Shown one piece after another: positions 1 through 24,138 of a stretch of DNA of 24,954 nt (position 1 is the stretch's first letter; the number at the start of each line of letters is the position of its first letter). Source of the stretch: a virus (lineage: Duplodnaviria > Caudoviricetes). The DNA is taken from positions 1-24,954 of the IMG/VR virus record IMGVR_UViG_3300017589_000096. One strand, 5' to 3'. Made by a program: the position numbers and the translations under genes. The notes below the pieces were generated by a model, which had not been told where the DNA came from, made no database searches, and saw only the letters and a program-made list of their open reading frames with translations.

Positions 1-53
1 AGAGTACGCGTCTGGGGGGCGCGTGGTCGGACGTTCGAATCGTCTCACCCCGA
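1..53 (+). tRNA. tRNA-Pro(GGG), 5' part lies upstream of the window; integration target
   Basis: Anticodon arm CGCGT-CTGGGGG-GCGCG, variable loop TGGTC, T-arm GGACG-TTCGAAT-CGTCT, acceptor 3' strand CACCCCG plus discriminator A; CCA not encoded. Confidence 0.95.
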
Positions 54-109
54 CTAACTGATAATTAAGCACTTACATTAAATTGTAGGTGCTTTTTTTA
101 TTGATTGGT
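11..109 (+). repeat. attL direct repeat (tRNA 3' half plus terminator)
   Basis: Matches 24040..24138 at 98 of 99 positions (A82 vs G24111). Confidence 0.97.
67..99 (+). terminator. Intrinsic terminator of tRNA-Pro
   Basis: AAGCACTTACA-ttaaat-TGTAGGTGCTT followed by a T run; duplicated in attR. Confidence 0.85.
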
Positions 110-130
110 GGAACACAAATGGAACACAAT
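105..130 (+). repeat. Putative integrase arm-type sites (TGGAACACAA x2), left end
   Basis: 26-mer TTGGTGGAACACAAATGGAACACAAT is identical to 23910..23935 and has an 11-bp internal period. Confidence 0.8.
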
Positions 131-240
131 CATCCTTTATAGCCTTAATACTGTAGATTATTTAAGTATAATATAGACTATTTTCAATGCTTGCTTTTGT
201 ATCTCAAAACAAAAACATATAGAATTTGTAGCTTTGCAAA

Positions 241-429
241 TTAATATAATCCTAGTATTGTTTCAATAAAATGCTTTATTGGAGAGCTATTTAGCGCTAT
301 TTCTATGATTAATGGATATAATATATATTTCCACAATAAAGATAGAAACATAGAGAGCTTTATTTGTCTGAAATACTTTGGCCTTTTCTTAGGAGCAATT
401 CTTCTTTTTTTTCTGTAATGTTTAGACAT
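241..429 (-). CDS. Small hypothetical protein with basic N-terminus and one hydrophobic segment
   Basis: ATG start, K/R-rich first 22 aa, then LSMFLSLLWKYILYPLIIEIAL; short, so it may be spurious. Confidence 0.45.
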   Translation of the reverse strand: MSKHYRKKRRIAPKKRPKYFRQIKLSMFLSLLWKYILYPLIIEIALNSSPIKHFIETILGLY

Positions 430-1054
430 AGCATCTTGATTTTAAATAATATCAAGAATGCTCGTCTTGCTCGTCGCAAAGATCATTCCTTAGTTTTAAA
501 TATCAAAGGACAAAGAAATTCTATTTCTAACAACTGTCTGGATGTGCTTTATTTGTTTATAATTCAGGTGATTATTTGATATTTTGCTGATCTTCTCCGT
601 TTATAATTCCTGCAAAAGCAATATTAGCTCCGCCATATTTTATTATTGCTTACAAGATTGATTTAAAAGATGTTATGTTATTGTTATCCCCCTTGTATCC
701 TATTTAAGTTTATGTCCAGATTCCGGACATTTGTGCTAATATTAATCTATATGCATGTGATATGCGTATTCCGGTATGAATTAAGCACGGGACAACATCA
801 CGAGTAAAATATAATGTTCTCTAAGAGGAGAAGGGGGTGATTTGAAATCACATCCTCTTTTCCGGCACAGCTAAATAGTTTTTGATTGGAATACCCAAGA
901 ACCCAAGTACGGTTTATTCCTACTCCTGCAAGATGAATAACTTCAATTCGATTCTTTTCAAAAAAAATAAAGATACTATTTCCCTTTTGTCCCAAATTGC
1001 CAACCCCTTATACATGTAAAAATACAACCTTTGATAAATTAAAAAGAAAAAGGT

Positions 1055-1516
1055 ATGCCAATTTTTGAAGTAAACGGACAACAGTACGAAGTTGAAGATC
1101 GCTATACAAGCGACTTCGCGAAAGAATTTCCTTCAGCGGTGACTAGGATTGAAAAAGATGATCATATTTTAGAGGTCGCTGCGGGTGATTACTCTCAATA
1201 CCTTTCCTCATTAAAAGATTATAGGCACGTCGTTCCTGAAAAAGCTATGAGGAATTTGATTGGAGAAAGTGTTAAAGGGGAATATCAGATTCCATCCTGG
1301 ATAGCAAGGCCTCCGCAATCATCTCAATATTCTAAACCAATGCAATCTACTAATTCTATTAGTGTTCCTAAGAGCCAAATGCTTGATATGGATATTATTG
1401 TTAGGCAGAATAAAGACGAGAGAACCCAAAAGACAAAGATGGCCCAATACCTAAAGGCTCAGGGCTATAAAAGAGAGGACATTATAAGTATTCTTAAGAC
1501 TGTAACAGCAGAATAA
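1055..1516 (+). CDS. Hypothetical protein, first gene of the giant-protein operon
   Basis: 153-aa ORF with ATG after an A-rich leader; ends 1 nt before the giant ORF. Confidence 0.85.
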   Translation: MPIFEVNGQQYEVEDRYTSDFAKEFPSAVTRIEKDDHILEVAAGDYSQYLSSLKDYRHVVPEKAMRNLIGESVKGEYQIPSWIARPPQSSQYSKPMQSTNSISVPKSQMLDMDIIVRQNKDERTQKTKMAQYLKAQGYKREDIISILKTVTAE

Positions 1517-1517
1517 T

Positions 1518-4500
1518 ATGCCAATAGATTTATCAAAATTGAATGTTAGTGATACATCAGATATTGATGATATCGTGAATGAATTATTCTCGGAAGAATC
1601 TCCGAAAGTGAATACTCAGGAACCTATTAAAGAAGTGCCGGGAGCTTCCGTCCCATCTTATCAGACAAAACCTGAAGATGTGGGCTTTGAGAACGTGCTT
1701 GATAAAAAAGGTTTTGAGCAAAGATACAATGTAAACCCGAACGTTTTAAGCGGTAGACAAACCGATCCAATTCAAAAGAGTATCGAAAGTTTGCGGGAGA
1801 AGGTTGGTAAAAAAACTAACATTGGATACGAAGTTCCTCTAGGAATTATTGGTGGTATCGCTTCTCTTTCTTCTCCTGCTATAAATGTCGCTTCTAGGAT
1901 TCCATGGGTTAAAGATGCAGCGAATAAGATTATCCCTGATGGAATAAAAAGAAGAATAAACGAATCAGAGATAACAGCAGCAACAGAGAATGAGCTTAGG
2001 AGGGCGGAAAGATCCTCTAATCTAAAAGGAAGTGCGATCAATCAATTTGGGCAATCATTTTATAGTGGGGTTAAGGATGAAGGGAGTATGCTCACATTTG
2101 GGCTGAGCGAACTTGACAACGACATAACATTACTCCATATTGCCAAGAAAGCAGAGAAAGAAGGCTTTGATAATCTCCCTGAACGTGAGCAGGATCTTCT
2201 AACTGCTTCAGCTCTTAGGATAGCTGCGGAGGCCGCAAACAGTGACGAGAAAACGGCAATGCAAATAGCTGGTATGTCTACAGCAGAGTCTATGCCTTAT
2301 ATGCTTCAATTCCTGATTACTAGTCCTGTGGCAAGCTTGGCTACTACACCAGTAAGAGCTGCTATAAAGACAGCAGCAGAAAAAGCAATTAAATCAGGCG
2401 TTAATAGTAAGCTAGCAAGTGTTATTAAGGGAGCAGCAAGAACAGCAGCGGTAGCCACAAAAGCGGGTGCTATGTCGGTTATGCAACCAACAATGTATGC
2501 TGATGCAGTTTCACGAGGCACTGGTAAAGCTACTTTAGACGAAAACGGAAAGTATGCAGGCATGGAAGATGCGGAGAGCGCACCTGTAGCAGCATATAAG
2601 GCTTTTGCAAATGCGACTGTAGAGAATCTTTCCGAACACTCAGGTGCCATGTTAAGTGGAGCTACAGGATCTGCGGCACGTGCTCTTAAGAAAGTTCCCG
2701 CTTTGGGTGGGTTCATTTCTAACGTACAAAAGAATAACGTACTATCTGGAGCTACTAAGATGATGAAAGCTGTAGGGTTCAATGGTGCACCTGAGGAGTT
2801 CTTCGAAGAGCAGGTTTCTACTGGTTTAAACTCTTTAATCGTTGGAGATAGCCAATTCTCAGACTTCACAAACTGGAAGCAACAATTAGCCACGTTAATC
2901 AGTGTAGGAGCAACGGCCGGGGCAATGACTTCTACAGGCTCTTTGATGTCCGTTCCTTATAAAAAACAGATTAAGAATAACTACTCAGAGGCTACGGATC
3001 TCGTTAAAGATTACTTCTCCCCAGATGAATTTGATCAATTCAGGGCCTCTCTATCTAATATGAATATAGATTCACGTCCGGACTTTATTAGTTCAGTAGC
3101 AGAGTCTAAAGGATTTAGTACTGATGAAGTGAAGGATCTAACTGTTTTTGCTACTCGTCAGGCGCAATATGATGGTTATGTAGGGGCTGTGTCTGATTAT
3201 ATCGAAGAGGAAAAGGTAATAGCTCAACAAGAGATTGATAGGGTATCCAATAAGGATATGGGAGAGATCGTGCAGGTAAAAGGCTTCGGGGGGGACCCTG
3301 TGAATATTATAGGAGGATTTGTGGTGATAGATGAAAACGGTTTCGTGGATAAAAATAAGTCTTCCCAGACTCTTTACTATTTAGATGAAAATGGCAAAAG
3401 GAAAATGACTACTCCAGATAAGTTTGGACAATTAATCAAACGTCTACCATTATCACACGCCTACGCTGCAGAGTTTAGGAAGGTGGAGGATGATATCCTT
3501 ATTAAAGAAGAAAATGAGCTTGCGGACGAGGAATCACCCGAACAAGCACAACAGGACGCTATTTTATTGGCTGAAAATGGGAACCAGGTAGAAACTCCCG
3601 AAGGAGTAGGAACTATCTCACAGGTAGAACAAGACGAGAATGCAGCGATTGTTTTATTCCCAAATGGAGTAAGTAAGAAGTTTGCATTAGCTATTCTTAA
3701 GCCTGCTAAACCTAATATTGATCCTCCAACGTCCGGACAGGGAGTTTTGATAGACGAGTCTAAACCTATAACATCGCAGGGAGAAGAGGCAAACCCAACG
3801 TTACAAACCGTAGAATCTGGTGTTTCGCCCACGCAAGCCGCACCCGTATTTCCGGTTGATAAGGAAAATAATATAGACTATTCTCAGATTCAAGAGCCTG
3901 AGATGTACGCACAAGCTTTACAGAGTGAGTTTGAAGGCGATGCCGTCTCTGTTATAGACGAACAGATTCAATCCGCTCAATCGAGATTAGAGAAAGCTGG
4001 TAAGAATTCGGATGCTATTAAGCGTAGACGGGCCATGAAATCTGAACAAGCAGAGGTTGATCGCTTAAACAAAGTGAAAGCTATTCTTTCTCCAAGTGAG
4101 CAAGTTGTAAACGAAATGCCACTTGAAAACATAGGAAATGAGGAAGCGTCACCGAGCGAAGAAAGCAATATGATAGATTTGTCTCAACTTACTGAACCTG
4201 AAAGACGGAAGTATGTTACTGAAAACTCGACTGATCCTATTGAATTAGCTGACCTTTACGATCAGGTTAAAGAAGAGACGGAATACGCTCAGATGATGCC
4301 GTGGGAAGCCGCTTTAGTGGGTAGAAAAGTAAGCAAAGACTCTTTCATCGAGAACTCAGATAAGAATAACATCACAGGGGCTATGAACAAATCGTGGTTC
4401 TCAAAGGATGGTAAGGGTTTAGACGTTATCGCGGCTGAACTCTCAGAATATGGTATTCCTGTAACCGAACAAGATTTAGTAAACTTCATTATCTCACATC

Positions 4501-7500
4501 CGGGGAACAACGTTAAGAAGCGTTCTCAACTCTCTATTGATACGGATCGTAAGTTTAAAGAGGTCGTGAAGAATCTAACGGGTCAAGAGGTTGGTGGAGT
4601 TGACTCTCCTTCGGGGAAATTAATCTTAGCCGGTTTAAGAGCCGGGGCAAGAAGCGAACAAGAAAGACAATCTATGCCTTTCGATGCTTACACTATACCT
4701 GATTCAGTATTAAATTTCTTTGAAGAAACGGGGTTAAATCCGGAAGATTTTAATAGCTTTGAGGAGTTAGGCCAAGCGGTTAATAGTGAAGTGGAAAGCG
4801 GAACATTCGTATTTCCTTTAAGCCCTACAGATTTACAAACAATTAATAATATCATAAACCATGGAATCGAACAGCAAGCAGACTACGAACAATTCAGTAC
4901 AAGAGTTGAAAAAGCAGGGCTTAAGAGAGCAGCTCAACAACCTGTACTTGAAACAACCGAAACAGAAGCAGGAACCGAAGGAGAAAAAGAAGGAATAGAG
5001 CCTACTCCCGAAGAGATTGCGGAGATTGAAGCGCAATTAGAAAAGCCTAAGAGAGCCGGCAGCGTTATTGACATCATCAACGAGATAGCAACAGAGCAGA
5101 ATCTTCGTGATGCAGAGAAAGATGTGAACACTACTCCGACTGAAGCTCAGAAAGAAGCAGGTAACTATAAGATGGGACACGTGACCATTCAAGGGTTAGA
5201 TGTATCTATCGAAAATCCTAAAGGTTCTCAGAGATCGGGCAAAGACGATACAGGTAAAGAGTGGTCTGTAACACTAAACAATACCTACGGTTACATTAAA
5301 GGAACTAAGGGGAAAGATGGAGATCATGTAGATGTCTTTATCGGAGATGCCCCTTCCTCTGAGAATGTATTTGTAGTTGATCAGGTTAATAAAGACGGAT
5401 CATTTGACGAGCACAAAGTTATGTTAGGATTTAACTCCTTAGAGGATGCTGAATCGGCGTACCTATCTAACTACTCCGAAGGATGGACCGGATTAGGCTT
5501 TACTTCTCCAATGGGGATTGAGGAATTTAAAACGTGGGTTAGCGAAGGAGTTAAAGGCGTCCCTTCAAGTGAGTATATTCAGGAGAGATCAAAAGATGTT
5601 ACTAACGAAGAATACCCGAACTCTCCTATTTCTAAAGATGGAACGATTGTTGATTCGGATGGTAATCCTATGACACTATACCATGGGACAACATCAGAAA
5701 AGGTTAATTCAATAAAAGATTTGTCTCCGAATAGCGCAGGTTCCAATGCGAATTTTAATGGAGCCGGAATCTACTTGTCCCCTACATTATCTGATGCACT
5801 TGAATATTCAAACGGAAATAGAGATAAGGTGTATAGTGGAACTGTGAAGTTTACGAATCCTTATATTCATTATGGTATATCGGGTATGAGTAACGAAGAG
5901 GCTTTAGCTGAAACTAAAAGGCTAAAAGATTTAGGTCATGACGGGGTCATAGTCTATGGTAGTAAGGAAATGCGAAAGATTGGAGCGGATCCTATAGAAA
6001 TTATAGCGTTTGACCAAAAAAGTATAACGGAAACTCCAGCAGGTGAAGAGCTTGTTGAAGATGAATTGTTGTTCAGATCAAAAAAACAAAAAGATTCAAA
6101 TGTGCGTGATGAAACTCCTCTAAAAAACGGAGAAGAATATTATATTCGATTTACTGAGACATCGAATGAAGATCTCGAAAGAGGAACGTCATTAAATTTT
6201 ACCGGGTTACGCAAGAAAGACTACTCATTAAAAGCAGCAGCAGAGGTATTGGATATCGACAAAGATAATTTAGTCGTTGTCGATGGAGTATATGCCGAGG
6301 TTATAGATGGGCTGAACGGGTATAAACTGGAGGCTGAAACATTAGATGATGCGATAGAAGAACTCGAAAACGGTAAATATCAATTCTATGATGTTGGTAG
6401 ACCTGTCATATATGTTGGCAAATACTCTGAGAGAGGTTCTGATCAAACAGGAGATGGGGACGCTTTTTATCCCGTAAGAATTGCTTATGACGTGGTAAGC
6501 GAAAACAAAACTTCTGAAGCCGATCAAATCAAATCTGAAGCCGAAAAGAACGGAACATTCCTGAAGGCTTCGAACGGAAAAGATTCTAACCTTAACGAAA
6601 AACAGTGGATTCAAGTTCGAACCAAAGCTTTTAAAGAGTGGTTCGGTGATTGGGAGAATGATCCGGAGAATGCTTCCAAGGTTGTTGATGAAAATGGGGA
6701 GCCGTTGGTGGTTTATCATGGGACCGGAGGTGTGTTTACTGCATTTGATAAAGAAATGATAGGTTCTAGTTTTAATCAAGACTCAAATGGATTTTTCTTT
6801 ACAAATAATTTAAAGTCAGCCGAAGAATATGCTAATAGTACCCCATGGGGCACAACTAGAAAAAATGGAAATGTTATGGGCGTATTTTTGTCGATTTCAA
6901 AACCATACACATCAAAAATTGACTTTGATCCTATTGATGAATGGGATAACAACTATGAAAGTTACATAGATAAATCAAAAAAGAAAAAGGCAGATGGAAT
7001 AATTGTTAAAGCAAAAAAAGGACAAAGCATGTATGTAGCATTTGAGCCTAACCAAATCAAATCCGCCACAGATAATACCGGAGAATTCAGCCAAAACAAT
7101 GATGATATACGGTTTAGAGATGCGGAGATAGACAGACTTGACAAGGAGTATATGGATGCTGTCGAGTCTGGAGATATGGAAAAGGCTCAAAGAATAGTTG
7201 ACCAAGTAGCAAAGAAGAACGGGTACGTATCTGAGAGTGAGTACAGGTTATCTCACAGGGCCCCACATATGCAACCTAACACAACTCCACAACAGAGATT
7301 CGATGAAAGTCATGCTTTGAGTATTGAAGATATGGCAAATGGATACCTAAATGTACCGGATGAATTCTTTGATCCTAGAAATGGTGCACAATGGTACGGA
7401 TATGATACTCGTGAAGGGATGGAATCGTATCGTTCTCTAATGCGTGCAATGAGGGAAGTCAAACAGCAGATAAAAGACAATGGAGAGGTTATCGATATGC

Positions 7501-10500
7501 CTAAAGTAACCGTTTACAGAGCCGTTTCCAAAGAAGTGAAAGAAGGCTCTGTAAGAAATGGTGATTGGGTTTCTCTTTCACAAAGCTACGCTAAATCTCA
7601 TGGTAATGCATGGGTAGATGGACCTTCAAGAGTGATAAAAGAAGAAGTTCCTGCGGATCAAATATGGTGGGATAGCAATGATATTAATGAGTTTGGTGTT
7701 GATGATGGTAAAGGATACTCCTATAAGAATACCAAAAACAACAAAAAGCTGAACGAGACTATAACCCGTGATGATGAAGGGAATATTATTCTTCCTTCTA
7801 AGAGGTTTAATGATAGAAAGAGTGATGTTCGTTATAAATTCATGGGAGAAAAAGGGGCCGCAAATCTTGATAAAGCGGAAGAAGTTTCTATTCGTATAGA
7901 TAATTTAGCTATTGCTCGCAAGATGGAAGATTCAAGGATGGAGCCTAAAAAGATAAAAATGGCAACCGGATGGGAACGTGGATCTGACGGGAAGTGGAGG
8001 TATGAAACATCCGATATAAAAATTAATGATAAAGTCTTTGGGAAAAGAAATATAGGCGGGACAGATGTTCCTGAAAAGATAATGCTTTCCGACATTGTTG
8101 ACGACAAGGAGCTCTTCGAAGCATATCCATCATTGAAAGAGACTGAGGTGTCTATGTCTTTTGATAAGTCGGAGAATGGAAGCTGGAACAAACCGATGAA
8201 CTGGATAAGCTTATACGAAAACCATTTCGAGAATATTTATGATGCGGATTCTGAAAATAAAAAGTCAGAAATAAATAGCAAAATAAAGGAGATAAAAGGC
8301 AGCGAAGAATACAAGCGTGAATTAGAACTTGAAAATGAGCTTGACGAAAAGTTAAAAAAGGGAGAGATATCAATTGAAGGTTATCCGGAGTTTCCAGCAA
8401 TAGACTCATTAAACCCTCTATATGTTGAGCTTGAAAATGCAAAGAGTGAAGGTAGTGTGGTTGGATATTCTTTGAAAAAAAGCGCAAGATCTGTTCTGTC
8501 GCATGAGATACAACATGCAATACAAGACGAAGAGGGGTTCGCTACAGGTGGAAGCCCATCCGGACTATCGAAAGATGTGTTTTTGAATAAATCACAAAAA
8601 GAAAAGATAGCCGAAATTGATAGACTTTTTGATAAACTGAAAAATTCTGAATTGCCTAATTCAAATATGGATGAATTTGTCAAAGAAAGACGTAAGCTGT
8701 TTGATGAAAAGTCAAAAATATACGATTCTTTGAAAGAAATAGATTTGGAGAGTGCACAATATGAATACTATCGTAGGCTTGCTGGTGAAGTAGAGGCTCG
8801 AAATGTGGAATCTCGTTTGCTTATGTCAAAAGAGCAAAGATCTCAATCATTAGCTGAAAGCACCGAAGATGTATCAAGAGAAGATCAAATATTTTTGGAA
8901 AGTGGAACTTCAAAGAGTATTGAACCTATTGAAAAAGAAGCTACCGCATTAGCCGATTCTCTTAATACTCCTATCCGTGTAATTCGTGACATCAACGAGA
9001 TTACAAACGAGGATAAAAGAAAAGAGAAAAGAATGCGTTCGGCAAAGGGTTGGTATGATCCTAAAACCGGAGAGGTTGTTATCGTTCTTCCAAATGCTGA
9101 GAGTGTGGGGGATGTTCAATCTACAATCTTACATGAAATAGTAGGGCATAAGGGGTTGAGGGGTCTTTTAGGTGACAAGTTCGAGGATATGATGGATAAG
9201 GTGTATAAACATCTACCTAAGGCTACACGCAAGAAGATCATGGAATCGGCTGTGAATAAGTATCGATTTGACTACAGAACTGCTACTGAAGAGTATCTTG
9301 CGGAGTTCGTTGAAAAGGATGTAATGGAACCAAGTATCTGGCAGAAGATTAAGAGCGGGATTAAGGACTTCTTCCGTTCAATCGGCGTTGATCTTGAAAT
9401 GAACGATGCGGATATCGCTTACCTATTATGGAAGTCAAAGAACAGGCTTTTAAAAGGAGATGGACCTATTGAAGTTATAAACAAGGTAGCAGCAGGAGAA
9501 GAAGCTAAAGAGAGATTCAGAGAAGCGGCTTATAGTGATGCGGATGTTCTATCGGATGAATTAGATAAGTCAGCGAGAGAGGCGTGGGAGCGTCTCTCTA
9601 AAGACGAGAGAACGGTTCATGAGATAGTAAACGAAACGGCCGAAGTCAGAAAAGGAATATTGAAGTACGTCCCGACTAATGAGAACGTGAAGAAATCCAT
9701 CTATGAACTCACACAAGGTCTGTTTGATAATGCTGTTTCCTTAAGGAACCTTCAGCACCTTGTTAACTCAGTCTCAGACCAACCTATAGAGTCTTTTGCA
9801 AATCCATATCAATTCCTTACTACGATACCGGCAAGGAATGAAAATAAGATGAATACGTTCGTAAAAACGAAGTTCTCTAAAATCGGTCAAGCTATTAAAG
9901 AACTAGGTGTTCCTCGATCCACCGTTCAAATCTACGCTTATTTAAAGCATGGTTTAGAACGTAATGAGTACATGAGAGCACAAGACGTAAGAGAGAAAGG
10001 TGAGAAGCTCAAAGAGGCTGCCGATCTTCGAATACAAGCCATCTCGGATAGTATCGAAGCTATGAGCAGACAACTTGAAACGGCTGATAAAAAAGGCACG
10101 GATCGAATACTTGCTAAGATTGAAGGTTATAATTTGGCTATCGAAGGTGTTAAATCGGAGTTGGAATCTAAAAAGCAGGAATACGAAAAGAGTGTAAGCC
10201 TTAAAGATTATTCAGGTGTGTATGCCGTTGCGGATCTCTTCATTAAGAAGTCAGACGATAGAGAGTTTACCGTCGCTCAGATTGAAACAGCTATAGAGGA
10301 GTTCGAAAAAGAGCACGATGTTACTAAACTGTGGGAGGCCATTAACGGGGCAACAAAGTGGACGGTTCAGAATGAGTTTGAAATGGGCCGTATCTCAAAG
10401 GATTTAAGGGATAAACTCTTCTCTATGTACAAATACTACATTCCTTTAAAAGGATGGGAAGAAAAGAACGCCAATGAGGAATGGGATTACATTAGTGGAG

Positions 10501-14755: not shown

Positions 14756-15184
14756 AAGGAGTCTATATTTTGCCAACCCCTACAAATCATTAATGATATA
14801 CTTTGAAAGTACACCCTTTTAAGTCATTCACATGGGGTACTTTGAAAGTACGTCACCAGAAATGAACAATCTACTATTGTCCTAAGAAAAAGATGGGGTA
14901 ACTCAAAGTTACATCATTTCAAATTGAGAAGATTGAAGAAAACAGAAGATGAAACAGACTTTAAACTTCTTATAGAGAATGGAATTAAAGACTTAAAACA
15001 GTAATCAAAAGAAAGTTTGCCTAGCCAATATACACCGGTGGGAGGGATGGGGCTCTAAAAGCTTCAGTGGCTCAATATGAATTATATACAGGAAACGGCA
15101 TTCGTTTTAAATGATAAACCTTACATACAAACAATCTTATACTATAGTATTTATACTTATTTATTACAACAATTGATTGTTTTC

Positions 15185-15215
15185 TTTGTTTTATTGTAAA
15201 ATGGTATTACATTTG
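15185..15215 (+). promoter_or_regulatory. Consensus Bacteroidetes promoter of the TAC operon
   Basis: TTTG(15185-88)-N19-TACATTTG(15208-15), 21 nt before ATG 15237. Confidence 0.8.
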
Positions 15216-15236
15216 CCACCAAATCGAACCAACTCA

Positions 15237-15578
15237 ATGGGATATAAGTTTAAATTTAAGATTACAGATGAAACACAGCTAGAAGATGCATTGTCTGCTC
15301 TTGAAGATTTGGGGAAAGCAAATATAACTGAAATACCATTTAATTATATTTGTAAGATATTGGAATTTGTAGGGGCTGAACTACAAAAAGATACTATTGG
15401 ATCTCAAAAGAGATTTTATCATCCTGACTGTTGTACATTTGGTGGATATTTTGGTGTACATATTAAACACGGAGGAAAAGGTGAAGTCTCTGTTCTCAGG
15501 ATAAATTTTAAAACTTACATATTAAAAATAGCCCGCGAAATTATTAGGATTAACATTGAACGAAGAAAAGCTTATTAA
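15237..15578 (+). CDS. HicA-like toxin of a TAC system (start moved to ATG 15237)
   Basis: IPFNYICKILEFVG...GSQKRFYHP...VHIKH; lies directly upstream of hicB. Confidence 0.65.
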   Translation: MGYKFKFKITDETQLEDALSALEDLGKANITEIPFNYICKILEFVGAELQKDTIGSQKRFYHPDCCTFGGYFGVHIKHGGKGEVSVLRINFKTYILKIAREIIRINIERRKAY

Positions 15579-15589
15579 CAACTAAAATT

Positions 15590-16150
15590 ATGTCTAGAAA
15601 AAGTTTGGAGTACTACAAATCGATAGAGTACAATATTATTGTCCAGCCACAAGAAATGGATGGAGAAAAATGGTATGAAGCCTATTGTAACGAGTTTGGC
15701 GTTAGTGCATGCCATGGACTTGGGGATACTCCTTCGGAGGCGTTAGCGAGTTTTATTGTAGAAAAAAACGCTTTCATTGAATTTCTTTTTGATAAAGGAG
15801 AATTTATCCCAGAAAAAGAAAATTGTACTGAAAACACTGTGAGCGGAGTATTTACAGTTAGAACATCTCCATGGGTTCATTCCTCATTGATTAGACAAGC
15901 AAAAAAAGAAGACGTTTCTTTAAATGCTTATATTAATCAAATATTATGTTATGGAGCAGGAAGTAATTCTATTGCACATAATACGAATGAAAAATTAAGA
16001 GAGGTTAAAGATGTTTTACTTGTGGAGACTAGTAAGATATTAGAGAAAGTGAATGCTCTACACTATGACACAGATGAGTTATTTAACAAGAAGAGAGAGA
16101 ATAAAATCTCTCTTCTTCCTAGTTATGATCATTATTTATTTATTAAATAA
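15590..16150 (+). CDS. hicB: HicB antitoxin (RNase H-like fold plus RHH) with C-terminal extension (putative ChAD)
   Basis: LEYYKSIEY...CHGLGDTPSEAL...SGVFTVRTSPWVHSSL...VSLNAYI plus about 60 extra C-terminal residues. Confidence 0.88.
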   Translation: MSRKSLEYYKSIEYNIIVQPQEMDGEKWYEAYCNEFGVSACHGLGDTPSEALASFIVEKNAFIEFLFDKGEFIPEKENCTENTVSGVFTVRTSPWVHSSLIRQAKKEDVSLNAYINQILCYGAGSNSIAHNTNEKLREVKDVLLVETSKILEKVNALHYDTDELFNKKRENKISLLPSYDHYLFIK

Positions 16151-16157
16151 CTAAAAG

Positions 16158-16601
16158 ATGAAAGACGCTATAATAAAACCAGAAGAATATAAAGAAATTC
16201 TAAAATGTATTGATTTAAAATCTATATCACTCGTTGAATCATCTTTTAAAATATCAGACGAATTTAATCCAGCAGGAAGAGTAAGTTTGAATATGAATGA
16301 TAAATATAGTTTTGAAGAAAAAGACAGCATGATTATTTTTCATACAAATTTCAAATTTACTGGATCAAAGGAAGATTCTTCAACTTTAAAAAAAATGCCA
16401 TTGTTTACTTTAAAAGGTGAATTTATAGCGATATATGAGAAAAATAAAGAAATTCATATAACTGATGATTTTTTTGAAGTTTTTAAAGAAATAAGTCTTT
16501 CAATGATTGTTTGGCCATACATAAGAGAATATATTCAATCTACAATTGTAAGATCTGGATTACCTCCATTCTCTCTACCAGTTAGAAGAATAAATGAATA
16601 A
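16158..16601 (+). CDS. secB: SecB-like chaperone of the TAC system
   Basis: C-terminal IVWPYIREYIQSTIVRSGLPPFSLP; third gene of a toxin-antitoxin operon. Confidence 0.88.
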   Translation: MKDAIIKPEEYKEILKCIDLKSISLVESSFKISDEFNPAGRVSLNMNDKYSFEEKDSMIIFHTNFKFTGSKEDSSTLKKMPLFTLKGEFIAIYEKNKEIHITDDFFEVFKEISLSMIVWPYIREYIQSTIVRSGLPPFSLPVRRINE

Positions 16602-16628
16602 CAAGCATAACTGATGTATTAAATGGAT

Positions 16629-16908: not shown

Positions 16909-17118
16909 TTATGGTTTTTGCTGTTTTGCTGATTTCTTAATTAATAAAAGTATTAAAGCTAGAGTTTCAAAATAAGCAATAGAAACAGCCCATCCGAATA
17001 AATTATCGCTAACATAAATACCCAAGTATTCCAAAACAGAAATGTTTGCAAAAGAAAAGTATGCCGTTACCCCTGCAAATATCGCAATGGATAGTATTGA
17101 TAGTAAAATGTTTTTCAT
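16909..17118 (-). CDS. Small two-helix membrane protein
   Basis: Two hydrophobic segments and a basic C-tail; own -7 box TATATTTG at 17171..17178 (minus strand). Confidence 0.7.
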   Translation of the reverse strand: MKNILLSILSIAIFAGVTAYFSFANISVLEYLGIYVSDNLFGWAVSIAYFETLALILLLIKKSAKQQKP

Positions 17119-17239: not shown

Positions 17240-17521
17240 TCACTTTTTTCGACCTAGTTGGTTTAAGCTTTCGATTGTTAGCTGTATTGCGCTTTTGCCG
17301 TTTGGAGATGATAACTCTACTTGATTAGGCATAACTAATCTCAATAGAGCCGGCAAGAAGCGTGCTTTCTCTACAGAAGAAAGCTCAGTCCAGATTTTAT
17401 TGATTTCCGGGATAAGTGCCTCCACCTCCTTTTCAAGTAAAGGACGAAGATCCTTTCCGATCTTATTGGGTGTTCCTGCTGTTCTCCCTCCGGATTTCGG
17501 TGTTCCCTTCATTCGCCCCAT
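17240..17521 (-). CDS. Probable terminase small subunit-like DNA-binding protein
   Basis: N-terminal KGTPKSGGRTAGTPNK motif, helical core and VELS..NG tail, as in proteins found upstream of phage large terminases. Confidence 0.55.
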   Translation of the reverse strand: MGRMKGTPKSGGRTAGTPNKIGKDLRPLLEKEVEALIPEINKIWTELSSVEKARFLPALLRLVMPNQVELSSPNGKSAIQLTIESLNQLGRKK

Positions 17522-17757
17522 GGCTGTTTTTCTATTTTAGAAAACAATAGAAATCGGATACCCTTATTGGTTAACTCCTTGATGCGGGTGTCAAAGTTTT
17601 CTGAACGAACAAGTAGCACAGTATTATGTGTATCGCAAATGTATATTGGGATTCTTTCTGTTACACACTCCTGCTCTTTTGCTCGGTTCAAAAGCTCAAT
17701 TGCTTCAGCTCTTATCCTTTTCCCAAATGTATAGTCTAATAAATATCCCTCGTCCAT
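17509..17757 (-). CDS. Hypothetical protein
   Basis: Overlaps both neighbours in a tightly packed operon. Confidence 0.65.
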   Translation of the reverse strand: MDEGYLLDYTFGKRIRAEAIELLNRAKEQECVTERIPIYICDTHNTVLLVRSENFDTRIKELTNKGIRFLLFSKIEKQPWGE

Positions 17758-17975
17758 AATGCAGTCTTTTGAATGTAAACGTACTTCTTTCGGGTCAGAC
17801 GCAAGTTGTTCAAATGGGACAAAGCTTTGAATACTTCATCAATTTGCCGACTGTCTTCGGTCAATACTGCATTTGCAAGTTTTATGTAGAAGAACAGAAA
17901 CCTTTTCCTGCCAACTTTTGGCAATGATCTTTTTATGAAGGCTACCTTCTCAATCAGTGAAATTGAATTTTTCAT
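17736..17975 (-). CDS. Hypothetical basic protein
   Basis: ATG 9 nt after the dnaB stop, same strand. Confidence 0.65.
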   Translation of the reverse strand: MKNSISLIEKVAFIKRSLPKVGRKRFLFFYIKLANAVLTEDSRQIDEVFKALSHLNNLRLTRKKYVYIQKTALWTRDIY

Positions 17976-17984
17976 GTTTTGCTT

Positions 17985-19391
17985 TTAAAATGGTAAATTG
18001 TCTTTTTGTGGATTGCTTGAATTTGAAGGTCCTTTCTGAGGAGATTCTCTAGCATCGTAAATCTGTGTCAATGGCTCATTATATCTGAATGCTATTTTCC
18101 CTGCTCGGCCATCACGTTGTTTCGCTACACTTAAAAGACCGAGCCCTTTTTCTGCATTAGAGTCGTAATACTCTTCCCGGTGTACAAAGATTACTGTATC
18201 CGCATCCTGCTCGATGGCTCCGGACTCACGCAAGTCGGCTAGAACAGGGATTTTGCTTTCTCTACTTTCGCAATTTCGGTTGATCTGGGATAATAAAACT
18301 ATCGGGACACCAAGCTCTTTGGCCGCCACTTTTATTGCCCGGCTGGTCTGGGAAACTTCTGCCTCCCGGCCGTAGCTTCGGTTATCAGACCTCATATCTA
18401 AAAGTTGTAAGTAGTCAATCAGAACTAAATCAAGTCCATTTTTTTGCTTAATATTCCGGCATCTGGCCTTTATTTGCTGGATGTTTATAGTTGGGGTTTC
18501 GTCTATCTTGATGTTTAGCTTCGATATCTTACCCGCTGCATCACAATATTCATTTTCTTCTTGAGGAGATAATTTGCCTGCTTTTAGCATCTCAGTTGAC
18601 ACATTGCATTCCGAAAGGATCATACGTTGTGCGAGTGATACAGTTCCCATTTCAAGCGAAAATATAGCCACTTTCCGGCCTTGCAATGCAGCTGATTTCG
18701 CAAAGTAGAGTAGCATTGCTGTTTTACCCATGGCTGGTCTTGCAGCCAAAATAATGAGTTGTCCTGGTTGCCATCCTCCAGAAGTAAAATCTAACGTAGA
18801 TAGTCCGGTTTTAATTCCAAGACTTGATCCGGACTGTGCCGCTTTCTTCCGCTTTTCATATTCGGATATCGCATTACGCGAAGCCTCCGACATATCCATC
18901 CATTTTGCGCCAAAGGTCGTTTTCTCCATTATACCTTCGACTGCCTTTATTGATTCGGCAATCGAGTCGGATATGTCTGCGCTTGGATCAGATGCTTTGG
19001 CTGTTATCTCCATACCCGTTAGTAGCAATTGCCTAGAAAGCCAAAGTTCATGTAAATGAAGAGCATATTCTGATACATTTACAGACGATGAGACGGAAGA
19101 AGTAAGATTTGCCAATTCATAGCTTCCTCCAACATATTCAAGACTTCCGGTTCGTTCAAGTTTGTGCATGACCGTTAAAAGGTCGATCCTTACGCTGTTT
19201 TTGTGTAAGGTTTCTATTGCCTGGTATATCATTGCATACTTTTGATTATAGAAAACATCCGGGTTCAGTATTTGAACTACGTCATATATTGCATTACTTG
19301 CCATCAAAAGACATCCGATAAGAGTTCGCTCCGTAATTTCGTCATGCGGAAACACTAGCTGCTTTGCTGGTTCGTTTTTTTGTTTAGCCAT
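17985..19391 (-). CDS. dnaB: Replicative DNA helicase, element-encoded
   Basis: PHDEITER N-domain, Walker A AARPAMGKT, FSLEM, IDYLQL, LSQINR, DLRESGAIEQDAD, KQRDG. Confidence 0.97.
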   Translation of the reverse strand: MAKQKNEPAKQLVFPHDEITERTLIGCLLMASNAIYDVVQILNPDVFYNQKYAMIYQAIETLHKNSVRIDLLTVMHKLERTGSLEYVGGSYELANLTSSVSSSVNVSEYALHLHELWLSRQLLLTGMEITAKASDPSADISDSIAESIKAVEGIMEKTTFGAKWMDMSEASRNAISEYEKRKKAAQSGSSLGIKTGLSTLDFTSGGWQPGQLIILAARPAMGKTAMLLYFAKSAALQGRKVAIFSLEMGTVSLAQRMILSECNVSTEMLKAGKLSPQEENEYCDAAGKISKLNIKIDETPTINIQQIKARCRNIKQKNGLDLVLIDYLQLLDMRSDNRSYGREAEVSQTSRAIKVAAKELGVPIVLLSQINRNCESRESKIPVLADLRESGAIEQDADTVIFVHREEYYDSNAEKGLGLLSVAKQRDGRAGKIAFRYNEPLTQIYDARESPQKGPSNSSNPQKDNLPF

Positions 19392-19395: not shown

Positions 19396-20172
19396 TCATT
19401 TGTTTACGGTTAAAGACTCGTGATATAAATCATCCAAATCAGGCATATTAGAGTTTATTTCATTTCTTATTGGCTCTGATCTGTTCAGTGATATGTTATC
19501 ATTCCAAACTTCTTGATTCAGGTACGTTTCGAAGTTCTTTCGATATTGTTTATCGGGAGTTGCATTCACATACCCCGAGATATGTTTTATTGCAAGTTCT
19601 TTGTTGGACATGGAAAGCTTATCCCATTTAGCTTTACTAGTTTTCCGGTTGCCCTTTTTCCCATATTGTTCCCAAACATTTTCAAAAGAAAACTCAGCCG
19701 GTGAATCTTTAGATTCGCCATTATATTTATTCTTCTTATTTACTTTACTTTCCTTTACTTGCGATTGGGTGGCTATCGCAAGGCTATCGGGTGGTGATTG
19801 GGTGGCGATATCGTCAGACTTCCATCTTATTTCATTCCCTCTTTTTCCAGCTTCAGAGAGTTTTTTCCTCTTCTGTTCGAGTGGGATCATTCTTCTGGTA
19901 AGACTTTCTGAAAAGAAAACAGAATTATCTTTTACCGTAAACAAGCTGTAATTGCCAACAACTGTTTTTACTTTTTCTGTTGTGGTATTATAACGTCTAG
20001 CCAATGCGGGGAGTAAGGTTACAGGATAGCAATAATCGGGCTGATCTCTTAGAACTTCAACAAGCATCCAATAAATTCCGTATCCCTCCATACCTAACTG
20101 CTCTATGAGCATAACGCACTTAGGATCATCTTTTGCATTTGAATCATGCGGGAAATAATATGCGTCTTTCAT
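19396..20172 (-). CDS. Phage-type replication initiator (DUF4373 / Lin1244-like N-domain)
   Basis: YFPHDSNAKDDPK...GMEGYGIYWMLVE, FENVWEQYGKK...YRKNFETYLNQ; adjacent to dnaB. Confidence 0.85.
   Translation of the reverse strand: MKDAYYFPHDSNAKDDPKCVMLIEQLGMEGYGIYWMLVEVLRDQPDYCYPVTLLPALARRYNTTTEKVKTVVGNYSLFTVKDNSVFFSESLTRRMIPLEQKRKKLSEAGKRGNEIRWKSDDIATQSPPDSLAIATQSQVKESKVNKKNKYNGESKDSPAEFSFENVWEQYGKKGNRKTSKAKWDKLSMSNKELAIKHISGYVNATPDKQYRKNFETYLNQEVWNDNISLNRSEPIRNEINSNMPDLDDLYHESLTVNK
19727..19815. repeat. Putative replication origin: five degenerate 11-bp iterons plus pyrimidine-rich TTTAC repeats
   Basis: GCGATTGGGTG GCTATCGCAAG GCTATCGGGTG GTGATTGGGTG GCGATATCGTC (19761..19815), next to TTTACTTTACTTTCCTTTACTT. 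Confidence 0.72.
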
Positions 20173-20831
20173 CTTGATAAAATTTTAGGTTGCCACTTTT
20201 TACACCATTCTTTGCGCAGATAATCCATGATTTGATCATACGATCGGACAAATCCGTTATTTATAAATTTGGTGATATCTTTTTCTAGATCCGCGAGTTC
20301 GCGCATCAAACATTCTTCACCTTTTCTATTGCGCATTTCAGATTCATGAGCCCCAAATACGATATGATTTAACGCCTTTGCAATGTTCTGTATAGCAATA
20401 GGTAATAAAGATAACGGGACAACTTTCTTTATAGCTCCTGTCATTTCCCGATATGAATCACCAGCATCACAACGATATCGCACAAGTTCATCATAAACAA
20501 ACTTCAAAACTTTAACCTTAAAGGCCGGGTTAAGCCACATAGCGAAATCCAAAAATAGGAGAGGGTCCATCCATGTTCCTGCATTTTTCCCCTTATTCGC
20601 CTTGGATTTCATCATAACGGAATTCCGATATGATGAATCTTGTTCCTCAGTCAATGCTTGAATAAATTCTTTTGTTGCCGAATTCTCAAGATAATGACTA
20701 ATTTGTTTTTGTTGACCACAAGAGAGATTCCATTGTTTGAGCAGTGAAGTTGCGTTAAACATCCCGTCAGAAGTTCTTTGAAGAATTTCAAAATCTCCCA
20801 TTTTTCGATTGAGAACCTGATTTGTTTTCAT
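20169..20831 (-). CDS. KilA-N domain protein (antirepressor-like)
   Basis: MKTNQ...QRTSDGMFNATSLLKQWN...GTWMDPLLFLDFAMWLNPAFKVKV. Confidence 0.9.
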   Translation of the reverse strand: MKTNQVLNRKMGDFEILQRTSDGMFNATSLLKQWNLSCGQQKQISHYLENSATKEFIQALTEEQDSSYRNSVMMKSKANKGKNAGTWMDPLLFLDFAMWLNPAFKVKVLKFVYDELVRYRCDAGDSYREMTGAIKKVVPLSLLPIAIQNIAKALNHIVFGAHESEMRNRKGEECLMRELADLEKDITKFINNGFVRSYDQIMDYLRKEWCKKWQPKILSR

Positions 20832-21163
20832 ATCAAACTCCTCCTCTTTGCCTCAATCAAGTATAGCTTGTGGGCTTTGATAAATATTTCTTCAGACAAT
20901 CCGGCAAGGCTTTCGGAGCTTCTTTTTTTTGCGTCTTTGGATCTTGAAATACGGTTCAATAACTCGTTGTTGGATAATAACATCAATCCATCAGATTCAC
21001 ATTCTGTATTTTGACTCGTGCTTAATTGCTTTTTTTGTGCAAAAAAACGTAGCAACCTTTTTGATCGTCGAAATAATTTTGTATATTTGATATGTCCGGC
21101 TACTATTAATTGCCCCTGCTTCGTGGCGGGGCTTTTTTTATTGATTTTCATCACTATTTGCAT
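20828..21163 (-). CDS. Hypothetical protein; start uncertain
   Basis: Overlaps the xis stop and the KilA-N start (ATGA); its 5' part overlaps an antisense terminator. Confidence 0.55.
   Translation of the reverse strand: MQIVMKINKKSPATKQGQLIVAGHIKYTKLFRRSKRLLRFFAQKKQLSTSQNTECESDGLMLLSNNELLNRISRSKDAKKRSSESLAGLSEEIFIKAHKLYLIEAKRRSLI
21112..21139 (+). terminator. Intrinsic terminator antisense to the replication operon
   Basis: GCCCCtGC-ttcgtg-GCGGGGC-TTTTTTT. Confidence 0.7.
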
Positions 21164-21498
21164 TTTAAGGATGTAAATTCTTTATCTTTTTCGTTTATAA
21201 ACTCATCGACCGTCTTTATCCGGTTTTCTAGTAGCCAGGATTCAATTTCTATACGTTTGAATAATACCTTTGATCCTCTTTTGTAATGTGGAATTTTTCT
21301 TTCCGAAATAAATTTATTTAAAGTATTTACAGAGAATCCGGTAAATTGGGAACATGCCTCTTTCCCGAATAATTCAGGAATTGAATCATTACTTTCTTGT
21401 GTCGTAGGAATGAATGAGCGAAATAGAGACTTTATCTGCCCGACAGTTAATGCCGCTATTGGAGTGGAGTCTGAAATTTGATAGTCTGCTTGATTCAT
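21154..21498 (-). CDS. Excisionase / HTH_17-type DNA-binding protein
   Basis: TPIAALTVGQ leader; EACSQFTGFSVNTLNK...IPHYKRGSKVLFKRIEIESWL. Confidence 0.88.
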   Translation of the reverse strand: MNQADYQISDSTPIAALTVGQIKSLFRSFIPTTQESNDSIPELFGKEACSQFTGFSVNTLNKFISERKIPHYKRGSKVLFKRIEIESWLLENRIKTVDEFINEKDKEFTSLKCK

Positions 21499-21643: not shown

Positions 21644-22564
21644 TTATGCTAAGTCTATTTCGTTATTTAATATTAATAAATCGCTCTTTGCTTCAGAAGA
21701 ATCTAAATTGTTGGCTTCTAGATAAATAATTACTTTCTGTAATACACCAGACATATGAAGACCTGATTTTTTGCCTCCATATAAATTAATCCGATTTCTT
21801 CTTTGTATGCAAAAGTTTAGTTTTTCCCTGAATTTTCTTGGGATTGCACATCCTCGAGTTTTGTCGAAATGTTGTAAGAACTCACTTATTTTTTCATTCT
21901 CAGATATTCCTGCATAGTGGCAAACTAGAGCAATGTGAATATAATCAAATTTTTGAAATTCAGAATGTGTATTAGCAAGGCATGATATCGGATGTTTAAC
22001 CTTTAAGTCTTCTTCCAATAAATCAAGACTGTTTAGTTGAGCATAAACTTCCGGGCCTACTTTCCTGCCTATTTTTTCTGATTCAATAATGTATTTTTTG
22101 TGTGTTCGTCTTTCTCTTGATATATGATCAAGAGTGTAGTGTTTATTCTTTAATTCATTGTCAAATTTAAACATCTGTGACTTAATTAATTTCATTTCTT
22201 CATCCTGAGATTTAGCCAACTCGTAAGTATCTTGTCCTTGAAAATCTGCAATAATTAGATCAAAATTTCCACAAAGGTTGATTGTTTGAAATTTTATTCT
22301 ATTAGTAATGTCTTCTAGATGTTTACCCGGAATAGGAATAGCATCAATACCTTTTTTTCGTGCCACTTCATTTGAGGCTTGCTGATATTGGTCCATTAAT
22401 GTGGTTTTATATTCATTAATTTTTACAGAAAGAATCTCTCTTAATTTAATAGCATCAGAGATAGAAAGATCAGAGTTTATTGCATACTCAATTAATACGG
22501 GAACGTCTGGACCCGTAATGTCTTTAATTGATTCGAAGTTGTGTAATAATTCTTCGCCTGTCAT
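21644..22564 (-). CDS. Hypothetical protein between int and xis, possible regulator (start moved to ATG 22564)
   Basis: About 306-aa ORF starting 10 nt after the integrase stop; no motif recognised. Confidence 0.75.
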   Translation of the reverse strand: MTGEELLHNFESIKDITGPDVPVLIEYAINSDLSISDAIKLREILSVKINEYKTTLMDQYQQASNEVARKKGIDAIPIPGKHLEDITNRIKFQTINLCGNFDLIIADFQGQDTYELAKSQDEEMKLIKSQMFKFDNELKNKHYTLDHISRERRTHKKYIIESEKIGRKVGPEVYAQLNSLDLLEEDLKVKHPISCLANTHSEFQKFDYIHIALVCHYAGISENEKISEFLQHFDKTRGCAIPRKFREKLNFCIQRRNRINLYGGKKSGLHMSGVLQKVIIYLEANNLDSSEAKSDLLILNNEIDLA

Positions 22565-22574
22565 AATGTAGTTA

Positions 22575-23900
22575 TTAAAGGACCTTTGCCGCTTCGTCAA
22601 TAATTGAACTACCGAAGCTGTCAAGGTAAGTATTTGTTGTTTCTAAATCAGAATGGCCTAATATCTGGCTTATAACCTCTCGGGGAACATTATTCCCTTG
22701 CAGAGTCATTGCCATAGTGTGCCGGCTTACGTATGAAGTAAGATTGGTATTTATTTCCAATTCCTTTGCCAATTCTTTTAGTGGATTCGAATAGTCTTTG
22801 TATCGATTCCGGATATGCTTATATAAGAGCTCTCCAGTTAACCCATCTTTTGATACTACCGGAATTAAGTACGGATCAATAATAATTGTGTTTGACTTGA
22901 ACCACTGTAAAAGATTTTCTATTTCATCCGTAACCTTTATCTGTATTGGTTTAACTTTCTTTTGATTCTTTGTCTTTTGACGCTTATATACTATGTATCT
23001 ACCTCCTTCATGCAATATGATATTCTTTTGGGTAAGCTTTGCCATATCCGTATACGCAATTCCATAACAATAGTAGGAAAACATAAACATTCTTCTCGCA
23101 GTTTCGGTAACGTCTGTTTTTCCCGGGGTATCTTTAATTTTCTGAAGGTATTCAGATGGTAAATACCGCTTTTCGGTCTCTTCTTCTAGTTTTGCAATCT
23201 CAAAACCTCCCTTTCCGAATGGGTAGGTTGAGATCGGACATTCCTTTTCTTTAAGGGCTATATTTAAAACGGCCCTTAAAGCCTTCATATAGTATTTCCG
23301 GGTATTACCTGAGCATCCTGAACGCTGTATGGTTTTACCTCCTGTTCCGTCTTTCTTCCTACGCCCTATTGAGTCTCTTGGCTTTTGCAACCACAAGTCA
23401 AATCCTCTCACAAACTTTATATCTATCTCACTAAACATTCGGTTTTCAAACTTTGGATCATATAGCTCCAGCATATGAAGTGTACGTTCGTAGCAAATAG
23501 CATTTCCGGTGTGATCGGTATCTCTTAAATCTTTAATAGTTCGGGTAAAGAATGGAGAAACTCTTCCTTGTCTCGACCGGTTTATGAATCTATCTTCAAA
23601 CTGATTAAGAGTCCAGTCTACTTTTTCGCGGTCAAATTCAGATATGATATCTAAAGCGCGAACCTTGTATCGCTCCAGTAGTTTATTGTAGTTTTTCCGT
23701 TCTTCGTTCTGCTCTTTTTGTTTTTCCCCTTTTAGACTTTTTATGATTACAAATACTTCGTTTTCATCACTCCAATAGTTTGGGTCAGCAAACATATTCA
23801 ACGAAATATATTTGCGAATTCTACTTTTTGTAATCCTTAATCTGATTGCAAATTTCCCCTCTTTGTTGGGTTTGTCTTTTCTTACTACAAAATTTACCAT
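22575..23900 (-). CDS. int: Tyrosine recombinase/integrase (Bacteroidetes type: arm-binding, SAM-like and catalytic domains); ATG 23900 preferred over GTG 23921
   Basis: IRLRITKSRIRKYISL arm domain; FMFSYYCYGIAYTDMAKL, RQKT, YVSRHTMA, LGHS...TNTYL. Confidence 0.95.
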   Translation of the reverse strand: MVNFVVRKDKPNKEGKFAIRLRITKSRIRKYISLNMFADPNYWSDENEVFVIIKSLKGEKQKEQNEERKNYNKLLERYKVRALDIISEFDREKVDWTLNQFEDRFINRSRQGRVSPFFTRTIKDLRDTDHTGNAICYERTLHMLELYDPKFENRMFSEIDIKFVRGFDLWLQKPRDSIGRRKKDGTGGKTIQRSGCSGNTRKYYMKALRAVLNIALKEKECPISTYPFGKGGFEIAKLEEETEKRYLPSEYLQKIKDTPGKTDVTETARRMFMFSYYCYGIAYTDMAKLTQKNIILHEGGRYIVYKRQKTKNQKKVKPIQIKVTDEIENLLQWFKSNTIIIDPYLIPVVSKDGLTGELLYKHIRNRYKDYSNPLKELAKELEINTNLTSYVSRHTMAMTLQGNNVPREVISQILGHSDLETTNTYLDSFGSSIIDEAAKVL

Positions 23901-23909
23901 AACTTTTTG

Positions 23910-23935
23910 TTGGTGGAACACAAATGGAACACAAT
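23910..23935 (+). repeat. Putative integrase arm-type sites, right end
   Basis: Identical to 105..130; lies in the integrase leader. Confidence 0.8.
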
Positions 23936-23986
23936 TAATCTAAATAGATATGATTAGATGTTGTTTCAATGTGTTGGTATACAGTG

Positions 23987-23994
23987 CAAATATA
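23987..23994 (-). promoter_or_regulatory. -7 box of the integrase promoter
   Basis: Minus strand TATATTTG (TAnnTTTG). Confidence 0.6.
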
Positions 23995-24039
23995 ATGAAA
24001 TACAAATAGATACAATAAAAAGAATAGTTAAAATAAGCC

Positions 24040-24138
24040 TCTGGGGGGCGCGTGGTCGGACGTTCGAATCGTCTCACCCCGACTAACTGATAATTAAGCA
24101 CTTACATTAAGTTGTAGGTGCTTTTTTTATTGATTGGT
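24040..24138 (+). repeat. attR direct repeat (duplicated tRNA 3' half plus terminator)
   Basis: Starts at the anticodon loop; matches 11..109 with one mismatch. Confidence 0.97.

Follow-up and report, generated by a model that had tools for sequence, protein, structure and literature searches.

Our analysis of IMG/VR record IMGVR_UViG_3300017589_000096, a single metagenome-derived record of 24,954 bp that was studied over its whole length (the window), revealed a capsid-less, att-bounded integrative element that recurs across samples and exchanges a giant polyvalent gene with full phages. The original prediction, made from the letters of the window, had proposed a helper-dependent satellite that loads its own multi-enzyme injection protein into helper virions. 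The recurrent capsid-less integrative element, the ejection-type giant protein and a candidate helper clade support this proposal in part; packaging and loading are predicted steps. We hold, with slightly better than even confidence, that the element is a satellite whose excision and replication would be cued by a helper, whose packaging into unmodified heads would be steered by a TerS-like protein, and whose own giant would be loaded as a conduit for DNA delivery.

The element is bounded by a 117 nt direct repeat of 94% identity (5–121 and 24034–24150; longest exact stretch 71 nt, at 11–81), which encloses 24,029 bp and corresponds to the att repeats first noticed in the sequence. The left copy, attL (5..121, plus strand), holds the 3′ part of tRNA-Pro(GGG) and downstream bases, and window positions 1–99 are a 100% match to the tRNA-Pro(GGG) locus of genome G042; attR (24034..24150, plus strand) is followed by a host chromosome flank (24169..24954) that is 95% identical to the same genome. 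ARAGORN found no complete tRNA there, as the record starts partway through the tRNA. The 23 open reading frames (ORFs) of the window were scanned against Pfam, PHROGs and NCBIfam. Pfam families were found for a tyrosine integrase, an HTH_17 xis-like protein, KilA-N, a Lin1244_N initiator, DnaB (which also matched TIGR00665 above cut-off), HTH_3, HicB and a SecB-like protein, in agreement with the integration and replication genes initially proposed. No virion family was matched by any ORF except the giant, and capsid, portal, TerL, tail and lysis families were absent from the remainder, as were the relaxase, coupling protein and type IV secretion system (T4SS) genes by which integrative conjugative or mobilizable elements are recognized; the absences listed from the letters alone were upheld. 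Several small ORFs had zero matches in the three databases.

The giant gene (1518..12653, plus strand) is the 11.1 kb polyvalent ORF of the original prediction; it accounts for 46% of the element and encodes 3,711 aa. Six domain matches exceeded the Pfam cut-off (LPD14, InPase, two ART-PolyVal domains, LPD23 and LPD38), an HExxH motif was also seen, and catalytic-type motifs are present in InPase and both ART domains. The protein thus unites a number of differing enzymatic and LPD domains, InPase and LPD38 included, which is the phage-type polyvalent pattern; the available part of PMC5512222 describes this pair as confined to phage-type polyvalent proteins. Of 1,794 candidates scored, 1,137 were homologs of the giant, and 249 giant loci were collected, which are not independent and include some duplicates. 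In 220 of them the locus extended 3 kb or more beyond the giant; a portal gene followed within 1.5 kb in 148 of these, and portal, TerL, major capsid protein or scaffold genes lay somewhere in the locus in 189. The usual setting among relatives is ahead of the portal in ~60 kb Bacteroidales phages, and the cultured phages BS-TP4 and BKO1-TP3 (64–65 kb) present a small gene, a mid-size gene and the giant, then portal directly, and TerL. Giants were also seen amid housekeeping genes with no phage genes near, at L139:1709-11710 (intact, 3,334 aa), L114, L129 and L154.

The C-terminal part of the giant aligns to the large proteins of Stx phages (23% identity, E 1e-22) and to those of Bcep22 and Ralstonia phages, with identities ranging from 21 to 24%. 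A model of the C-terminal 850 aa (pLDDT 84) gave no Foldseek match in the PDB, and no PDB sequence match was returned. Three ejection proteins each are used by T7 and P22. In the available text of 10.64898/2026.04.10.717836, phi24B gp47, which carries LPD38, is found in the virion proteome, is unseen by cryo-electron microscopy and is proposed as an ejection protein. Homology thus supports a putative ejection-type role for the giant. The dN/dS of the giant between the window and a second copy, on metagenome contig L159, was 0.067, which speaks for constraint. A display of giant substitutions, in which 29 of 33 were synonymous, is a small subset mixing phage and element contigs and is not used as support.

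Comparison of the giant with its closest relatives revealed exchange between the element and phages. At locus L087, portal and TerL come after a giant of 77% identity, and P0001, 96% identical to L087 and located on a 59.9 kb contig, is probably of the same phage type; L087-type phages are our candidate helper clade. Contig L159 also carries a 77% identical giant, followed by the element gene o80 at 89%. Between L159 and phage L087, the final ~750 nt of the giant are 89–97% identical and identity is 49% immediately beyond the stop codon, while the window and L159 were 65% identical before the stop codon of the giant and 92% after it. A tree of the last 270 aa of the giant placed L159 with L087, P0001 and P0002 (95/94), and a tree of the preceding 235 aa placed the window with L087 and P0001 (96/95), so that the trees of neighbouring segments conflict. 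Grouping of the window with L159 was rejected in both segments by the approximately unbiased (AU) test (p-AU 0.019 and 1.8e-5), this group having been named after the identities were known. The alignments and trees indicate that recombination between element-borne and phage giants has extended as far as the stop codon. Such recombination needs the element and a phage in one cell, as expected of a satellite and its helper. Furthermore, o80 resembles the portal start of L087 over its first ~20 nt, suggesting that the breakpoint of the original capture lay a short way into the portal gene. A search for a phage with a homologous giant had been proposed, and L087 provides one; the giant was not found in 31 relatives of G042 or in five sibling records, hence no co-resident helper was seen there.

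The architecture was also recovered from independent samples when contigs from eight public runs were aligned to the window. The junction at the end of the giant (12653) was bridged in five of the eight runs (X1, X4, X6, X8 and X9) at 3–6% divergence, representing five studies, or four without the best-holder study; runs X2, X3 and X7 showed no piece bridging 12653 among the matches listed. One X6 contig (10736–14062) links the giant to o80, o77, the XRE regulator and o104 with 194 differences over 3,327 nt, X6 record 23 starts at 495 and covers the left border of the giant, reaching its body, and variant contigs also show other internal giant domains. An assembly chimera of a phage contig with a small element would fit the origin of the window in one metagenome-derived record and the lack of any aligned contig covering the whole element; however, both borders of the giant are bridged in independent samples, the right in five studies and the left in X6 record 23, and this explanation retains next to no probability. 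Searches of IMG/VR with the C-terminus of the giant, the TerS-like protein and the junction pattern found nothing, although near-identical records may lie outside the set searched.

The same junctions bear on whether the element is a decayed prophage of the BS-TP4/BKO1-TP3 type that lost its structural block, a reading favoured by the homologs that both the giant and the TerS-like gene have in that phage family and by the closest giants, which include the L087 copy with its portal and TerL. Against this, the integrase, initiator and DnaB of the window had no tblastn match in the 50 kb stretches of BS-TP4 and BKO1-TP3 examined, and DnaB groups instead with small elements that carry tape-measure genes. 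The gene order also differs, the run of portal, TerL, scaffold and capsid that follows the giant in the two phages being absent from the window, and junction 12653 recurs in five studies. A simple deletion of the structural block is largely refuted by this separate backbone, differing gene order and recurrence, and decay of such a prophage is very improbable.

The backbone lineage was traced through the replication genes. A scan with the initiator found 10–13 kb records with integrase, initiator and DnaB, and genome searches added more, among them four att-bounded siblings of 12–21 kb (G087, G062, G039 and G078); these four gave no capsid, portal or TerL match to the reference set, which could miss unrelated structural genes. 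In the DnaB tree the window pairs with L256 (100/100) within a seven-row clade (96/92) of small elements; the L256 record ends after tail-like genes. Tape-measure cargo was identified by PHROG in L259, L302, L356, L357 and L366, and weakly in L256 and L257, and L259 also has a clear TerS (phrog_606, E 2e-25). In L308, whose DnaB piece hardly differs from that of the tape-measure-bearing L302, the cargo is a 528 aa protein homologous to the product of the mid-size gene found ahead of phage giants (profile E 6.6e-24; pairwise 9e-37 and 3e-32; best of 200 shuffles, P 0.005). An IMG/VR scan with this cargo returned L308 alone. Fifteen weak matches to it in 401 genomes were rejected, as the 15 regions showed a protein that we take to be glutamyl-tRNA synthetase, set among housekeeping genes. 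Separately, L303 holds a tape-measure element (1459–5467) beside a prophage (12948–17121) whose tape-measure gene and preceding gene match the same PHROG families, a possible satellite–helper pair.

The TerS-like gene (17240..17521, minus strand) is a homolog of BKO1-TP3 gp58-type genes. A homolog lies directly before TerL in L431, distant homologs do likewise in L273, L280, L281 and L321, and it is this synteny that suggests the identity of the protein. A profile of the TerS-like family had matches in 22 of the 183 genomes searched at family level and in 40 of the 401 searched at order level. Sixty loci, from 72 listed matches, comprised 15 giant-family phages, three elements with integrase and tape measure, 29 integrase elements without structural match and 13 that were unplaced. 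Small elements with integrase and TerS-like gene but no structural match (L413–L472) are common in Bacteroidales genomes, and these cargo-free elements look like minimal satellites. At L426:3-1696 a giant-type ORF diverges from a TerS-like gene, with no space for the small and mid-size genes and with host genes beyond.

Under the satellite reading, infection by a helper or its induction would lead to excision and replication of the element. The TerS-like protein would steer helper TerL onto element DNA, about 2.5 copies of which would fill an unmodified head, and particles of a ~60 kb helper phage would carry it. The giant of the element would enter the head beside or instead of the ejection protein of the helper and form the conduit for DNA delivery, InPase and ART domains being optional extras. 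By analogy with PLE11, a conduit protein of its own could let the element disable or outcompete the helper copy while staying infectious. A broader version, which we advance as possible but at rather less than even confidence, is that a Bacteroidales-wide satellite family hijacks helper injection through an exchangeable conduit slot that is kept current by recombination with the helper, particles with satellite DNA injecting it through the satellite's protein, which has enzyme domains of its own. The slot would hold a tape measure and chaperone for long-tailed helpers; for short-tailed helpers it would hold an ejection protein, mid-size or giant.

A number of observations weigh against the satellite reading or parts of it. 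The element is known from contigs alone, not as an excised circle, virion DNA or virion protein. Contig L159 is only 4.6 kb long and its status as an element is based on ~260 nt after the giant, while in L308 DnaB is frameshifted and the integrase lies beyond the record. Backbone genes followed the giant in none of the 220 other giant loci, so that the giant-bearing architecture, for all its recurrence, is known only from this clade. The TerS-like protein had no hidden Markov model match in Pfam, PHROGs, NCBIfam or a further profile search; the TerS-like gene of the original prediction was therefore sustained by the position of its homologs before TerL but not by profiles, and its structural model (pLDDT 71) gave no fold match and its sequence no match in the PDB. 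The low dN/dS of the giant may stem from time spent in phages. Over 1,200 aa, P0003 and P0004 share 97–98% identity with L159 and are, because of this, probably element-borne, their genomic contexts lying outside the data; their giants are ~2,450 aa long with only LPD38 annotated, which makes the enzyme domains optional and weakens the multi-enzyme emphasis initially given to the protein. The conserved cargo looks like a conduit core rather than a multi-enzyme weapon. The cluster of P0003 includes a member labelled Macellibacteroides fermentans, and this species or a near relative is the likely host.

Also on the negative side, one contig with 68 nt on its short side joins 861 to 13360 and represents a giant-less variant with an implied size of 11.5 kb, and 29 of the 60 TerS-like loci were integrase elements without any structural match; together these indicate that the cargo is dispensable. 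They fit an alternative that we consider unlikely, in which a real satellite carries the giant as a passenger that was captured a single time, stays intact only through repeated overwriting by recombination with phage copies and is unused in particles. The split N-terminus of the window giant would also fit, as would giants alone among host genes (L139 and L114), a context that PMC5512222, in the part available, reads as remnants. A passenger is, however, harder to reconcile with an 11 kb ORF that stays open across variants with differing domain sets (contig joints; P0003 and P0004), with siblings that repeatedly carry the same functional class of gene, and with a giant–o80 junction that is kept across the protein divergence of L159, whose giant is 77% identical.

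The split itself concerns o153 (1055..1516, plus strand), in which the N-terminal domain of the giant family (aa 1–65) is fused to an orphan tail, a stand-alone form found only in this record. That domain is lacking from the window giant, which begins with another N-terminus weakly like P0128 (E 0.004); this counts against the satellite reading in that the split could block loading of this copy. In one contig variant the start of o153 is fused to the giant body. The original prediction had noted no obvious breaks in the core genes; the core is intact, but the N-domain of the giant is split into o153 and o80 is a shortened HicB-like gene. Origin of the o153 tail as the end of a foreign mid-size gene was considered, and a homolog search returned none. 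At L418:2318-9358 the giant of a phage is likewise divided close to its N-terminus, with 447 aa followed by a long ORF.

Across phages, N-domain type covaries with the C-terminal tail of the mid-size protein (acidic tails go with eight N-domains of beta type, mostly basic ones with 17 of helical type; p 5e-5 by permutation, relatedness ignored), making the two a candidate co-evolving docking pair for head loading. If the N-domain serves as such an address for loading, its separation might leave the window copy disabled or redirected. A complex prediction for the N-domain of a phage giant with the mid-protein tail (L111) scored 0.02 without folded controls and carries no weight either way. Both the tail and the N-domain are often tandem duplications (L005, L006, L029, L035, L073, L111, L115, L200 and others). 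The unusual N-terminus of the window giant, unlike that of the P0001–P0004 clade, and the absence from the element of the small and mid-size partner genes that precede phage giants would suit a different role, that of interference, in which the giant would enter helper particles as a conduit subunit that is incompatible or dominant-negative, lower helper infectivity and serve defence, not delivery. PLE11 Rta shows that satellites can attack a helper conduit (PMC12987554, in the part available). Close likeness to the phage copies and repeated exchange with them nevertheless fit a compatible, working subunit, as do the catalytic-type motifs of InPase and both ART domains, and we judge interference to be distinctly unlikely.

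The remaining genes of the window surround this cargo. To the right of the giant, o80 (12650..12892, plus strand) is the C-terminal helix-turn-helix half of a HicB-like gene; it overlaps the stop codon of the giant and marks the element-type junction. It is followed by o77 (13324..13557, minus strand; phrog_17289), a small gene common to sibling elements, by an XRE/HTH_3 regulator (13560..13847, minus strand) that is a candidate repressor, and by o104 and o103 (13975..14703, plus strand), the former of which recurs beside XRE in siblings and weakly matches an AcrIIA3-family model (13975–14289; E 2e-8, below cut-off). A likely HicA–HicB–SecB toxin–antitoxin–chaperone cassette (15177..16601, plus strand) was recognized by Pfam matches to HicB and SecB and a PD-T4-9_C match (E 9e-7); HicA had no HMM match and is placed by position. 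The cassette is missing in one X6 variant (joint 15098 to 17188) and may be an anti-phage system, PD-T4-9 being a toxin–antitoxin–chaperone defence. A small hydrophobic ORF without database match, o69 (16909..17118, minus strand), separates the cassette from the TerS-like gene. Between TerS and DnaB lie the orphan ORFs o82 and o79 (17509..17975, minus strand), candidate helper-interference genes; an atlas search with o82 gave no usable match.

The replication and integration genes are all encoded on the minus strand: DnaB helicase (17985..19391), a Lin1244_N/DUF4373-type initiator with Pfam and PHROG matches (19396..20172), a KilA-N domain protein (20169..20831), o111, which is common to siblings, with the HTH_17 excisionase-like gene (20828..21498), the variable gene o326 (21644..22624), located after the integrase, and the tyrosine integrase (22575..23921). 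An initiator with iterons had been proposed; the initiator stands, but the iteron-like repeats within it (19771–19804; an 11-mer twice and one degenerate copy) are modest and were reached by two of 100 codon shuffles. A repeat at 105..142 (plus strand), with its partner at 23910–23947, is arm-type-like and may serve as an integrase arm site. In G042 itself, the tRNA-Pro(GGG) site holds an unrelated ~37.5 kb prophage-like element with a reverse transcriptase (G042:C1 ~1,977,450–2,015,000; L351–L353). The host flank of the window contains a perfect 33 nt palindrome (24472–24537), which belongs to a repeat that G042 also carries elsewhere.

In known satellites it is capsids, terminases or tails that are redirected. 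If our reading is true, a satellite-supplied, head-packaged injection protein extends piracy to the last step of infection and generalizes the tape-measure swap of PLE (elements that resemble phage-inducible chromosomal islands) to short-tailed phages. An apparently undescribed set of Bacteroidales satellites is indicated, and its members would be natural swap experiments on the head loading of giant ejection proteins, a question left open for phi24B gp47. That no such class had been described was part of the original prediction: no satellite with an ejection protein and no Bacteroidales satellite family was found in the literature covered, which did not extend to supplements or most subscription journals, but satellite carriage of a helper-type delivery protein has precedent in PLE and in some phage-inducible chromosomal islands of the capsid-forming kind (cf-PICIs).

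The cf-PICIs are likewise satellites with virion genes; they encode capsid, portal and terminase and borrow tails, whereas the element is the converse, supplying an internal protein but lacking a shell; capsid, portal and TerL gave no match in it. Tape-measure genes are reported in some of them (PMC12987554, in the part available). The same portion of that source describes how PLE builds chimeric tails in which a tape-measure protein and chaperone of its own are substituted, and in this way evades Rta, the anti-tail factor that it encodes itself. PLE11 of Vibrio cholerae and the element thus both encode a satellite version of the internal DNA-delivery protein of the helper, in PLE the tape-measure protein with its tail assembly chaperone. 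They differ in phylum and backbone, the host flank of the element matching a Bacteroidales genome; in divergence, the giant being 77% identical to phage copies and the PLE tape measure, according to the text available, 20% identical to that of ICP1; and in the captured protein, which here is an ejection-type polyvalent protein predicted to be packaged in heads. No Rta-like gene was identified in the element, PLE profiles not having been used. The large proteins phi24B gp47, BKO1-TP3 gp55 and BS-TP4 gp3 share with the giant a homologous C-terminal LPD38 core and InPase; as far as their available descriptions go, they occur in complete phages beside portal and partners, whereas the giant of the window lies without partners in a capsid-less element.

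The closest overall likeness is to the phage-inducible chromosomal islands (PICIs), including SaPIs, the pathogenicity islands of Staphylococcus aureus, as described in the available parts of PMC10085698 and PMC6893505. In both cases an integrase, regulator, replication module and TerS-like gene, the last three being candidate counterparts in the element, are united in one att-bounded element without capsid, TerL or lysis genes, and type 1 SaPIs rely on a TerS of their own and can enter full-size heads as concatemers. The element has the integrase and att sites of a PICI; for the regulator, an AlpA, MerR or Stl homolog in PICIs, it shows HTH_17 and HTH_3 matches only; and the capsid morphogenesis gene, which is not universal in PICIs, had no match among the 23 ORFs, o82, o79 and o69 being orphans. 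It differs in its Bacteroidales host ('Bacteroid' occurs 0 times in the main text of SatelliteFinder), in having an initiator and DnaB, analogous but of other families, instead of a primase-replicase, in its size of 24 kb against a PICI median of 9.5 kb, and in carrying a virion-type gene, which PICIs typically do not. As PICIs are defined by having no other phage structural or lysis genes, the virion-protein homolog of the element places it outside them. Taken together, the best reading by analogy is of an element that would work like a PICI with a PLE-like swap of the conduit, set apart from PICI membership by the structural gene that it carries.

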